A program made the translations under genes and the position numbers. From positions 19,762 through 83,761 of the forward strand of contig JBHLRS010000004.1 of the NCBI GenBank assembly GCA_048882325.1: DNA of 64,000 nucleotides, written 5' to 3'. Shown piece after piece: positions 37,198 to 47,663 of the stretch. Source of the DNA: Candidatus Thorarchaeota archaeon (GTDB lineage: Archaea; Asgardarchaeota; Thorarchaeia; Thorarchaeales; Thorarchaeaceae). The notes below the pieces were generated by a model. The model saw only the letters and a list, made by a program, of their open reading frames with translations, was not told the DNA's origin and made no database searches. Position 1 is the first letter of the stretch. The number at the start of each line of letters is the position of its first letter.

Positions 37198-38340
37198 TTG
37201 ACAAAGACAAGGAGTCTTTTGTTGGAATTCGAAACAGATGAGGTTGGGCGACTCGCAAGGGAGAGCAAGACAGAACGAAAAGCCCTAATCAAGGCATTCT
37301 CTGACTCATCAGACGTTGTTAGAGAGAGAGCATTGATCGCATCAATTGACCTCGCGGATCCAACTGTTGTTACTGATATTGTTAAAGCTCTGTCAGATGA
37401 CGTGCAAGACGTACGAATTGCAGCAGCACAGGCACTTGCGTTTTATCATCAACCGCGGACTGTTCCTATTATGATCAAGGGTCTCAAAGATTCCAGTACA
37501 TGGGTGAGATCACATTGTGCTGCAGGGCTTTCAAAATTGCTTAATGGACCAATTTGGGCCCGAATAGCTGAAGAAGATGTCGAGGCTTTCATTGAAGACT
37601 TCCCAGATATGACAGAAGAAGCCATCAACAAGTTTCTTACTGATATTAAACTGAAACCCGCGTCCATAGATCGCTATATGAATTGGCGCAGCAAAGGATT
37701 TGACATTGAGATTGATGTGACATCTCTTGAGGAGGAACTTGAGAGTGCTCCAATCTTGCTCTCTGAGGAGGCTGCAGCAAGTATCGATGCTCCAAAGTTA
37801 GGTGGCGTGTCAGAAGAGGTTGAAGCGATTCTTAGTGATTTACCTGATGAACTACGTGAAACGCTTCCACCAGAGGACCTCAGAAGGCTTACTCCAACTT
37901 CTGCTAGAGAACTAGTGCAAAAGCTCAAAGTATCTATCCCATCAGAGAAACCAAAGAAGAAGGCTGTTAAGGTCCGAAAAGTGAAGAAGGTCAAGAAGAA
38001 GAAGAAGCTAACTGCTCAGGACGAGTTGATCGAGAAACTTCCTGCAGAAGTACGAAAAGAGGTTGGTGATGAAACTCTCTCTACTTTGAGTGTTGAAGAG
38101 CTTGAAGCACTTCTCTCATCAACAGTAGAAAGTGAACCTGAAACCATGGAAGAAGAGCCTGTTGAAGAGAAAGTCGACCCAAGGAAGCAAGAGTTCATAG
38201 AAAAGTTCGGAGAAGAAAAAGCTGAGCTTCTGATCAGTATACCTGAAGTGATGTTGGAGGGAATTCCTGAAGAGCAGATTCAGGAAATGGATCTTGAAAC
38301 TCTCAAAGGACTGACTCAGGCACTCGAGCCTCGTGATTAG
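37198..38340 (+). CDS. HEAT-repeat protein with Lys-rich linker and three LP-helical repeats
   Basis: DVVRERAL, DVRIAAAQALA, WVRSHCAAGL; repeats ILSDLPDELR / LIEKLPAEVR / LLISIPEVML. Confidence 0.8.
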   Translation: MTKTRSLLLEFETDEVGRLARESKTERKALIKAFSDSSDVVRERALIASIDLADPTVVTDIVKALSDDVQDVRIAAAQALAFYHQPRTVPIMIKGLKDSSTWVRSHCAAGLSKLLNGPIWARIAEEDVEAFIEDFPDMTEEAINKFLTDIKLKPASIDRYMNWRSKGFDIEIDVTSLEEELESAPILLSEEAAASIDAPKLGGVSEEVEAILSDLPDELRETLPPEDLRRLTPTSARELVQKLKVSIPSEKPKKKAVKVRKVKKVKKKKKLTAQDELIEKLPAEVRKEVGDETLSTLSVEELEALLSSTVESEPETMEEEPVEEKVDPRKQEFIEKFGEEKAELLISIPEVMLEGIPEEQIQEMDLETLKGLTQALEPRD

Positions 38341-38344
38341 TTGT

Positions 38345-39634
38345 TCACTCAGATCCACGAATTACTACAGCAAACTCACCAGCTAACTTGCCATACCACT
38401 CGAGCAGGTCTCTCATATTGTCCACATGACGATAACTACCATTTCCATATTGTGCAATAGCTAGCATCAATTCCTCATCTATCTCACTTCGTTCACCCAG
38501 TCCAATGGAGTAGATAACGAGTTTGTTTCGATCCGTGAATCGATCTTTTAAGACTTTGAGTGGTGGAGGTCCTGAAGTTGTCATTCCATCAGTAAGCATG
38601 ATTAACATAGTAGGTTTGTCAGGGTCTCCGAATTCCTCCATTATCTCATGGGCTTTGGCCAGAGCTGTGCCCATGTCTGTGAGTGTACCACCTTCTTCCA
38701 CTTTATCTACAACATGCGTGCTGATAATCTGCAGACCTAAAGCCTTCTCTCTGCCAGTACATTCAACAAACGGTTGAACTTCACCGGTTTCGGAGTTTAG
38801 AAAGGTCATCTCACTGACCTCTTTTTCGAAAGTAATCACTCCAACTTTCTCACCGTAACCTCGACCGACTTTCTCCGCCAAGTACAGAAGAACAGCCATT
38901 GCTGCAGCTTCTGCTCGACTAACGTTTTTGCCCTCTTCGAAACGGTTCAGGAATGCTTGAACTTCAGGACTGTCTCCAGCAAGATCTTTCAGACCTTCAC
39001 GAGCATGCGCAATGTCCTGCACTGGGACATCTGTGGTTTTCATTGAACCACTTGTATCAATGCAGAGTACTGCGTTGAAAGGCGATGCAATTCCTACTGT
39101 TTTGAACTGGTATCCAGTCCGTTCGCGAAGTGCTTCAAATGCAAGTTTGGCAAACTTCTTGCCAGCTAAATCTGGTTTTGTGTTGATTATCTCCACTTTC
39201 ACATCAAGTTCTGGCCAGTTGAATGACATACCAGGATATACCAACCGACCACCAATGATATTCTCAAGACCCGTAACTCTCTCTGCAGCTCTGGTTACTA
39301 AGTCCTCTGTATTTGCATCTTCAGTCAGTGGTTTGAGTCCAAACTCCACATATTCTAATGCAAGCATGTCTTCATCGTAGAGTGTGACTTCAACTTGGTC
39401 ACCTTCCATTAAGAGCGATGCTTCGAGAACTAAAGTATCAATGATTATGCCATCTTCGGAGGCATCCTCACTTTTTCTAATCTCAGCTGCGCCCCAGAAA
39501 CTACTTTGCGGGTCCTCGAAAATTACTATAGACCCTATATCTGCGTCCAGCTTCTTCGCAATCTTTGGATGTAGATTGGCGAATCCTCTTAGGTCTCCGC
39601 CGTCAATTATCTCCAAGGTCAGTTTCTTGGTGAT
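38345..39634 (-). CDS. Cdc48/VAT-N module fused to a VWA domain with intact MIDAS
   Basis: LDADIGSIV..GIIIDTLV..GDQVEV double-psi barrel plus CDC48_2 lobe; DTSGSM, TDMG, LTDG; start probably ATC 39634 (track: TTG 39616). Confidence 0.8.
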   Translation of the reverse strand: MTKKLTLEIIDGGDLRGFANLHPKIAKKLDADIGSIVIFEDPQSSFWGAAEIRKSEDASEDGIIIDTLVLEASLLMEGDQVEVTLYDEDMLALEYVEFGLKPLTEDANTEDLVTRAAERVTGLENIIGGRLVYPGMSFNWPELDVKVEIINTKPDLAGKKFAKLAFEALRERTGYQFKTVGIASPFNAVLCIDTSGSMKTTDVPVQDIAHAREGLKDLAGDSPEVQAFLNRFEEGKNVSRAEAAAMAVLLYLAEKVGRGYGEKVGVITFEKEVSEMTFLNSETGEVQPFVECTGREKALGLQIISTHVVDKVEEGGTLTDMGTALAKAHEIMEEFGDPDKPTMLIMLTDGMTTSGPPPLKVLKDRFTDRNKLVIYSIGLGERSEIDEELMLAIAQYGNGSYRHVDNMRDLLEWYGKLAGEFAVVIRGSE

Positions 39635-46507: not shown

Positions 46508-46520
46508 AAAGACTCCTCCT

Positions 46521-47663
46521 TTAGTAGATCCGGGTATTATAGATCTTAGTTGCCACTGAGCGAGAACCGTAGAACACCTCAATCCTTAGACTTGCTTTAC
46601 CCTTTGTGTCTGTCATTGGTACAAGTTTCAGTTCGACCTTTTTATCAGACTTTGGTCCGATATCATGATGTTCATTTGTAACCTCAGAAACACCGTCAGA
46701 TGTCACCAATGATGCGATTACACGAATGCCGACTACAGTCTGACTTGGATTTTTAACTCTCAAATCATAATTGAAAGCTTTCCCAGCTACGATGTTGTTA
46801 GGGACTTCACCCAAGCTCACAATGAGGCCCATCTGAGAAGGAGAAAGAGGTTTTCCTTTAGGCCAACGAGTGATCCGTCCCAGTTCAAGAAGTCGGGACA
46901 GCGAAGTTTTCAGTTCTCTCAATTCTAAATCCAGATGGGGTGCTGCTTCACCCATATCAAAGGTGCCATCATTTGCTTCATAGTAAGATAGAACCTTTCG
47001 GTCTGCTTCAATAAGGTCGCTCACGCCCTCGAGTATTTGCAGGATTGCCTCAGGAAGTTCATGTGCCTCCAAGAGTGAATAATATTTCCCGCCCTCAACT
47101 GAAGCAGCTATCTTCCTGAATGACTCTTCAACAAGTGGATTGCAACCACATACAAAAATGAATACAGTACTTCCAAAATCAGTTCTAAGTTGTTGAACTT
47201 CCTGAATAGGATCATGCCCCTTCGGGCAACCCTCGGGAAAATAGTCATCACCAATACTGTTGTACAACTTTCCGTGTGGTGGAGCATCACCTACTAGAAG
47301 AAGGACCTTGTATGCATCACGTTCCCAAGACAATTTTGTCCTTGCATCATATAGACCATCAGCAACAGCCTCAGGGGTGTCCCCGCCCTCAGATGGCCGT
47401 AGCTCCGAGATTAGCTTGTGAACTCGTTTTATTTTCTCTGTGAAATCATGTACTCTCGTGACATATGATCTGTCTTGAGGAGGATGGTCGCGATATGAAA
47501 CAATACCAAATCGAATCTCTAGTCCTTCTGTGCGACTCGTGATATGTCCAACGATCTCAAAAAGACTATCCTTGACTGCCTTGATATCGTCCTTCATCGA
47601 CCCGGTTGTGTCAACTACAAATGCTACGTCTAGTTTGGTGGAGGCCAGCCCAATCCTCTCCAA
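46521..47663 (-). CDS. VWA (intact MIDAS) plus winged helix plus Ig-like domain protein
   Basis: DVAFVVDTTGSM, YRDHPPQD, GGDTPEAV, GDAPPH; LKTSLSRLLELGRI wHTH; terminal beta-sandwich. Confidence 0.85.
   Translation of the reverse strand: MERIGLASTKLDVAFVVDTTGSMKDDIKAVKDSLFEIVGHITSRTEGLEIRFGIVSYRDHPPQDRSYVTRVHDFTEKIKRVHKLISELRPSEGGDTPEAVADGLYDARTKLSWERDAYKVLLLVGDAPPHGKLYNSIGDDYFPEGCPKGHDPIQEVQQLRTDFGSTVFIFVCGCNPLVEESFRKIAASVEGGKYYSLLEAHELPEAILQILEGVSDLIEADRKVLSYYEANDGTFDMGEAAPHLDLELRELKTSLSRLLELGRITRWPKGKPLSPSQMGLIVSLGEVPNNIVAGKAFNYDLRVKNPSQTVVGIRVIASLVTSDGVSEVTNEHHDIGPKSDKKVELKLVPMTDTKGKASLRIEVFYGSRSVATKIYNTRIY

Follow-up and report, generated by a model that had tools for sequence, protein, structure and literature searches.

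The 64,000-nucleotide stretch of the Candidatus Thorarchaeota archaeon contig JBHLRS010000004.1 analyzed here (the window, to whose first nucleotide the coordinates below refer) encodes, between positions 37198 and 47663, a cluster of proteins in which a Cdc48-type N domain is followed by a von Willebrand factor A (VWA) domain. We propose that these Cdc48N-VWA proteins probably act as ATPase-less docking or scaffold subunits of a three-component ligase–hydrolase module of Asgard archaea. The core of the module is likely to comprise a YbdK/GCS2-type carboxylate-amine ligase encoded outside the cluster (27510–30953, plus strand), an Amidohydro_2 TIM-barrel metal hydrolase (P0003; 39705–41213, minus strand), and the one Cdc48N-VWA protein of the cluster that bears an intact metal ion-dependent adhesion site (MIDAS) (P0002; 38345–39616, minus strand), to which Thorarchaeota would have added an old fusion of a dead hydrolase with a Cdc48N-VWA unit, a young degenerate paralog, and lineage-specific accessories. 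The conserved trio with the GCS2-type ligase and the amidohydrolase provides the strongest partners of the Cdc48N-VWA proteins and was missed by the first-pass annotation of this DNA. The 3 genes have been kept, duplicated, fused, and lost together, which points to an undescribed enzymatic system; in the literature, we found neither a ligase–hydrolase–Cdc48N-VWA module nor a DEPDC5-like protein of Asgard archaea described.

The cluster contains 3 Cdc48N-VWA genes without an AAA ATPase, as the first-pass annotation had recognized from motifs that it quoted correctly. P0002 (423 amino acids, ending after the VWA domain), the C-terminal half of the 883-residue P0004 (41342–43993, plus strand), and P0006 (45362–46507, minus strand) are paralogous units: P0002 aligns with the C-terminal half of P0004 (BLASTP E value of 2e-19) and with P0006 (E value of 9e-9), the alignments spanning N module and VWA domain alike. 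The AAA domain is absent from P0002, P0004, and P0006, the VWA domain standing directly after the N domain instead. In P0002, a two-lobed Cdc48N-like domain (residues 1 to approximately 172) precedes the VWA domain, which contains a family-specific insert of approximately 40 residues behind the MIDAS loop. Pfam calls the VWA domains of P0002 (VWA_2, 39 bits) and of the neighboring P0007; that of P0006 is slightly under the cut-off, and that of P0004, below Pfam detection, is recognized through paralogy only.

The N modules are Cdc48-N-type barrels, in agreement with the initial assignment. The N-domain profile of the family matches Cdc48/p97 chains with E values of 1.4e-5 to 3e-3; through the first lobe, it also picks up designed double-psi barrels and AMP phosphorylase by its N domain. 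The top-ranking match of the profile is 4ga5, a solved relative of the AMP/thymidine-phosphorylase-like protein whose gene follows the module in one Asgard family (L011:8484-10007, family f22). The Pfam model CDC48_N matches 26 of the 59 family members (best E value of 6.3e-8), P0002 alone being under detection, and the Pfam families listed for these 59 members do not include CDC48_2, which models the second lobe. An exhaustive profile search yielded approximately 50 representative clusters at E < 1e-30 spanning both domains, and an AlphaFold2 model of the P0002 family protein, built from the 59-sequence alignment, reached a predicted local distance difference test score (pLDDT) of 92.8 and a predicted template modeling (TM) score of 0.80; a first run with 14 close orthologs (pLDDT of 55) was discarded. 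In Foldseek comparisons, isolated p97 N domains align with the model over 167 to 189 columns (TM score by target of 0.64 to 0.73, root-mean-square deviation [rmsd] of 3.1 to 4.6), and the best of these alignments cover both lobes (TM score of 0.71 to 0.73, rmsd of 3.1 to 3.7, 167 to 183 columns). Judged by the modeled fold, the second N lobe, a beta-clam packed on the barrel, appears to be present. The family therefore shares with the N domains of Cdc48, p97, VAT, and NSF a double-psi beta-barrel and a second beta lobe, whereas the AAA+ D1 and D2 domains of those proteins are absent and the VWA domain takes their place.

The 3 paralogs differ in their metal sites, one being intact and two lost, as initially described. 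The MIDAS motif (DxSxS..T..D) is complete in P0002 (D187, S189, S191, T313, and D343), whereas all 5 positions are replaced in both P0004 (S, G, K, E, and N) and P0006 (E, A, A, S, and S). Across the family, 48 of 51 non-degenerate members have kept the complete motif. Orthologs of P0002 from across Thorarchaeota share 65% to 96% identity; P0006, present in just 2 sampled Thorarchaeota genera and standing on a tree branch of length 3.8, appears to be a young, fast-evolving, degenerate paralog. As to gene boundaries, the start previously given for P0006 stands, but that given for P0002 (39634) does not: the sole in-frame ATG, GTG, or TTG is the TTG at 39616. P0006 starts with the TTG at 46507, seven bases past an AGGAGG sequence and just beyond the stop codon of P0007 (46523–46521), and the 62-nucleotide out-of-frame overlap between P0006 and P0007 is therefore an artifact of an over-long open reading frame (ORF) call.

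The hydrolase gene directly precedes that of P0002 in the same orientation. P0003 matches Amidohydro_2 (PF04909) with 53 bits (cut-off of 26.4) and bears an extra C-terminal region of approximately 150 residues. Seven residues, D27, H29, H31, K180, H182, H250, and D308, do not vary among 17 aligned orthologs, with H29, H31, H182, H250, and D308 representing the metal ligands. We read P0004 as a fusion of copies of these 2 adjacent genes, hydrolase and Cdc48N-VWA, because P0003 aligns with its N-terminal half (E value of 9e-6) and P0002 with its C-terminal half. Most of the 7 hydrolase residues have been lost in 7 of 7 fused forms examined, P0004 included, and the hydrolase half of P0004 is predicted to be catalytically dead. 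Consequently, of the “amidohydrolase pair” noted earlier, P0003 remains as an active-type enzyme, whereas the other member is the dead N-terminal half of P0004. The fused forms constitute one clade (Shimodaira–Hasegawa-like approximate likelihood ratio test support of 100), and fusion copies of approximately 840 to 905 amino acids are present in other Asgard families. The joint loss of the MIDAS and of the hydrolase ligands in the fusion would fit a MIDAS that binds either the substrate or the hydrolase. A predicted complex of P0003 with P0002, modeled in a run without controls, had a median score of 0.28 against a mark of 0.32, a value that argues for neither binding nor its absence.

The ligase occupies the N-terminal approximately 470 amino acids of its gene product and is followed by a C-terminal extension of approximately 670 amino acids, in which there is a weak hint of an MG2-type beta-sandwich and which may consist of Ig-like repeats. 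The protein matches Pfam GCS2 (24.4 bits, cut-off of 21) and the YbdK structures 1r8g and 1tt4, and it scores 64.7 bits against TIGR02050, the YbdK family model, with a cut-off of 176. By sequence, it would thus belong to the YbdK/GCS2 superfamily and fall outside the curated YbdK family, differing from YbdK/GCS2 ligases in being far under the family cut-off and in its long extension. The gene abutting that of the ligase (26829–27509, plus strand) encodes a 226-residue protein, a possible accessory. A counterpart with 29% identity is found upstream of the ligase in another Thorarchaeota locus (L001); the similar-sized genes at the same position in loci L010 and L012 showed no sequence similarity in a BLAST comparison among genes of 207 to 248 amino acids.

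We surveyed 121 sampled Asgard genomes from 26 families, counting related genomes as they stand. Cdc48N-VWA proteins were found in 47 genomes, P0003-type hydrolases in 42, and YbdK/GCS2-type ligases in 41, and all 3 genes share 7 of the 26 families (f1, f2, f6, f7, f9, f19, and f22). Family f24 has Cdc48N-VWA alone of the three, and none of ligase, hydrolase, and Cdc48N-VWA was found in the remaining 18 sampled families. By the labels of their genomes, Cdc48N-VWA proteins are distributed over Thor, Odin/Asgardarchaeia, Hermod, Promethearchaeota, Sigyn, and Heimdall lineages, with one genome being labeled Korarchaeota.

The gene order of the cluster was initially expected to be syntenic across Asgard genomes; the adjacency of the hydrolase and Cdc48N-VWA genes indeed recurs in several families, but the HEAT-repeat and VWA_4 neighbors discussed below are confined to Thorarchaeota loci. 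Most of the families that have all 3 genes, and Heimdall lineages too, show them next to one another. The order hydrolase, Cdc48N-VWA, and opposing ligase was observed in f6, in L004/L012, and in L010, with 2 such sets per genome in f7 and f19. In f22, hydrolase, ligase, and Cdc48N-VWA follow one another on a single strand; in f9, the ligase is followed by the hydrolase; and 2 Heimdall contigs carry same-strand operons of module genes. In P0199 (L007:4143-7880), a Cdc48N-VWA unit is fused to a ligase that is 35% identical to the ligase of the window (E value of 7e-69), and in P0165, from another lineage, it is fused to a second VWA domain, of the VWA_4 type. Among Thorarchaeota genomes, the whole neighborhood is collinear, so that synteny there is no evidence of linkage; with the ligase of the window also lying at a distance, the link between the genes rests on the other lineages. 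The neighbors of P0199 include SLATT, TIR, QueC, QueF, TGT-like, and Mom-type genes, a setting reminiscent of an island for defense or DNA modification, to which P0199 is probably adjacent by chance.

Several observations weigh against a three-component module. Kinship among the sampled genomes means that fewer independent events underlie the co-distribution than it suggests. Between the cluster and the ligase of the window, there are 7 kb with unrelated genes (10.4 kb as measured from P0002); in f9, Cdc48N-VWA is 18 to 53 kb away from the neighboring ligase and hydrolase; and in loci L005 and L008, family members occur in unrelated gene contexts. In addition, 3 Thorarchaeota genera (G005, G016, and G055; genomes 95% to 98% complete) encode a dead fusion of approximately 870 to 905 amino acids and have neither a free Cdc48N-VWA protein nor a hydrolase. 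The ligase is also missing from G005 and G016, and G055 has a 708-residue ligase gene approximately 8 kb from the fusion. Since the dead fusion is kept without the core genes, it must have a role of its own, which the module model leaves unexplained. Two further Thorarchaeota genera have none of Cdc48N-VWA, fusion, hydrolase, and ligase.

For the ligase–hydrolase module, we infer the following division of labor. The ligase would form, at the expense of ATP, an amide bond of the isopeptide or gamma-glutamyl type on a carboxylate-bearing substrate, the Amidohydro_2 hydrolase would remove it, and the pair would thereby write and erase a modification, with the Cdc48N-VWA protein holding either the enzymes or their substrate. 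Peptides or ubiquitin-like folds might be recognized by the N domain of this protein, as they are in Cdc48/p97, and its MIDAS metal might coordinate an acidic side chain or the carboxylate of a C terminus. The closest functional analogy is pupylation, the write/erase logic of which (PafA and Dop) is outlined in PMC7947786, and which likewise pairs a ligase with an amide hydrolase; in contrast to pupylation, the Asgard eraser is a TIM-barrel Amidohydro_2 enzyme rather than a homolog of the ligase, and no tag protein is known. If this reading is correct, the archaea most closely related to eukaryotes may possess a system that attaches an amide-linked modification and takes it off again.

The relatives of the ligase with solved structures or established names, namely, YbdK-family carboxylate-amine ligases and glutamate-cysteine ligases, have small-molecule substrates, and Amidohydro_2 enzymes act mostly on small molecules. 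Accordingly, the 2 enzymes could make and break a low-molecular-weight amide of the gamma-glutamyl type, with the Cdc48N-VWA protein only assembling or activating them in the manner of CbbO, NorD, and CoxE, and the fusion, in having lost its MIDAS along with the hydrolase ligands, would then reflect a MIDAS–enzyme contact made redundant. We consider such a purely metabolic role unlikely. The module lacks a MoxR-type ATPase; the large C-terminal extension that the ligase often has and the protein-binding domains encoded nearby (HEAT, coiled coil, and extra VWA) would be unusual for a metabolic pair; and the distance of the ligase from the YbdK cut-off (64.7 versus 176 bits) also speaks against it. 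Compared with VWA adaptors and heterodimers in general (CbbO/NorD/CoxE, Sec23/24 and archaeal ArnAB, TFIIH p44/p34, and Rpn10), the Asgard module is set apart by the missing MoxR ATPase partner and by features particular to its VWA protein, the Cdc48N domain and the approximately 40-residue insert after the MIDAS.

A different role is suggested by one subfamily (P0153/P0301), in which the Cdc48N-VWA unit is followed at the C terminus by a ubiquitin domain (Pfam PF00240, 25.8 bits, cut-off of 25.4) and one member of which (L006:5098-6810) adjoins genes for a JAB protein, an E2 (UQ_con), an E1 (ThiF), and ubiquitin. Cdc48-type N domains bind ubiquitin-like folds, and the N and VWA domains might together recruit substrates tagged with a ubiquitin-like protein to Cdc48/VAT or to a proteasomal machine, as do Ufd1, Npl4, and Rpn10. 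Adaptors of an AAA+ unfoldase had also been envisaged by the first-pass annotation. No AAA+ gene was found in or beside the cluster, either in the window or at the other loci examined, and no link to an unfoldase emerged within the window. Furthermore, the ubiquitin fusion is limited to one clade of the tree, the ubiquitin-system neighborhood was met once, and the conserved partners of the family are the ligase and the hydrolase. We therefore regard a general adaptor function as highly improbable and retain the docking role in the ligase–hydrolase module.

The nearest structural counterpart of the family is the N-terminal half (NTD plus SABA) of DEPDC5/Iml1, a eukaryotic protein of nutrient signaling and a subunit of GATOR1/SEACIT, to which the first-pass annotation had proposed a link on the basis of domain architecture. 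When the whole model was compared with all PDB chains using Foldseek, the top matches were DEPDC5 and Iml1/Sea1 (chains 9xzy, 9v0j_C, 9o5e_H, 8fw5_A, and 8ae6_W), with E values of 7e-12 to 3e-10 over 420 to 490 columns, TM scores by query of 0.31 to 0.43, and an rmsd of approximately 10; p97 N-D1 ranked behind them (E value of 1.5e-9, rmsd of approximately 22). In the ESM Atlas, searched by features and by shape, the only full-length matches were to the cluster of the family itself, and all others covered the VWA domain alone. The NTD of DEPDC5 resembles the N domain of Sec18/NSF, and its SABA domain resembles Sec23 (review PMC8534245). Thus, both proteins combine a two-lobed Cdc48/NSF-type N domain with a following VWA/Sec23-trunk-like domain and no ATPase.

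The proposed link to DEPDC5/Iml1 holds at the level of these structural matches, but no sequence method connects the family to Iml1. At E ≤ 10, the Pfam model IML1 (PF12257) retrieves no protein from the entire genome, and it does not figure among the best 25 of the 48 Pfam families listed for the 59 family members, and a profile of the second lobe plus the VWA insert, compared with PDB sequences, retrieved no DEPDC5, Cdc48, or NSF chain, only chance-level matches. Because no sequence search provides such a connection, the likeness, as seen in the model, is best described as a resemblance of architecture rather than as demonstrated homology. The differences are also substantial: the Asgard proteins, of approximately 420 residues, are devoid of SHEN, DEP, and CTD domains and retain an intact MIDAS; their longer members are extended by Cdc48N repeats, a ligase, a second VWA domain, or ubiquitin, not by DEPDC5-type domains; and DEPDC5 is partnered by NPRL2/3 and Rag GTPases, whereas the Asgard family is accompanied by the ligase and the hydrolase.

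On the functional side, the family could provide counterparts of DEPDC5 NTD-SABA that organize longin or roadblock proteins together with Rag/Arf-like GTPases into a GTPase-regulating complex similar to GATOR1. The ranking of DEPDC5/Iml1 ahead of p97 N-D1 and the presence of the family in Heimdall lineages agree with such a scaffold, and NPRL2-like longins have been reported in Thorarchaeota genomes (Liu et al.), with no DEPDC5 homolog reported there. Indeed, the GATOR1 relatives of Asgard archaea described in the literature are the longin subunits NPRL2/3 only. It is also in line with this possibility that a Roadblock/LC7 gene immediately precedes the gene of a family member with an extended N terminus in 2 genomes of one Asgard family (L014:2843-3235 and L009:6929-7318); the N-terminal extension in L014 has a weak CDC48_N match, suggestive of an extra Cdc48N-like repeat. 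We nonetheless judge a GATOR1-like function to be very unlikely, given the missing sequence link via Pfam IML1 or the profile of the second lobe and insert, the conserved MIDAS, the lack of SHEN, DEP, and CTD, and conserved partners that are enzymes rather than GTPases or longins.

The longin candidate of the window does not alter this assessment. It is encoded 7 kb from the cluster (54864–55475, plus strand) as a 203-residue protein with putative longin and winged-helix (wHTH) domains, for which Pfam returns weak HTH matches only. Its homologs are near-universal, being present in 107 of the 121 Asgard genomes, and persist in Thorarchaeota genera that have lost the module, so that there is no co-variation between the two. 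The Pfam model NPR2 matched nothing in the 121 genomes, controls included, and is hence uninformative.

The Cdc48N-VWA proteins are the only prokaryotic family found with the DEPDC5-type combination of Cdc48N and VWA domains, and their presence in Heimdall renders an origin of DEPDC5 from this family testable, in a group of archaea that is being closely searched for forerunners of eukaryotic machinery. Conceivably, the NTD-SABA region of DEPDC5/Iml1, and perhaps the similar N-terminus of SZT2, could descend directly from this archaeal family, with the scaffold of the GAP complex through which eukaryotes sense amino acids having been recruited from the docking subunit of an amide-writing and -erasing ligase–hydrolase system already present in Heimdall-type ancestors; we put this forward as a tentative and rather doubtful scenario.

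The interval comprises 7 clear genes and 1 small ORF, all confirmed as open frames, and the neighbors listed in the first-pass annotation (a fourth VWA protein, the amidohydrolase, a HEAT protein, and 2 heptad-rich genes) are all present, the status of one of them as a gene being uncertain. P0001 (37198–38340, plus strand), which is convergent with P0002, has HEAT repeats and an acidic tail rich in Lys; it is kept beside Cdc48N-VWA in L001, L002, and L003 and is not encoded at the loci from other Asgard families. P0005 (44244–45365, minus strand; 373 amino acids) ends in a C-terminal heptad tail resembling a coiled coil and occurs in some Thorarchaeota genomes only, with a 28% identical homolog in L001 and none in L002. 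The second coiled-coil candidate is the small ORF of uncertain gene status (43974–44225, minus strand), the translation of which is an 83-residue, heptad-rich sequence; no homolog was found in the compared loci, and a BLAST comparison among heptad ORFs of 83 to 96 amino acids revealed no similarity. P0007 (46521–47663, minus strand) is a canonical VWA protein (VWA_4) whose translation shows a DxTxS motif and which has a C-terminal beta-sandwich; it is kept in L001 and L002 with 64% to 68% identity and found in Thorarchaeota loci only.

Beyond P0007, an E2F/DP-type winged-helix protein (E2F_TDP, E value of 1e-7; 48141–48692, minus strand) is encoded beside a cyclophilin-like gene (47747–48136, plus strand), and the pair is syntenic in the Thorarchaeota loci L001 and L002. 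The other neighbors are ordinary genes that are likewise syntenic in Thorarchaeota, including an SPFH/NfeD pair (34558–36199), an Rce1-like CAAX protease (36248–37018), and a gene resembling PAC2 proteasome assembly chaperones (56993–57808).

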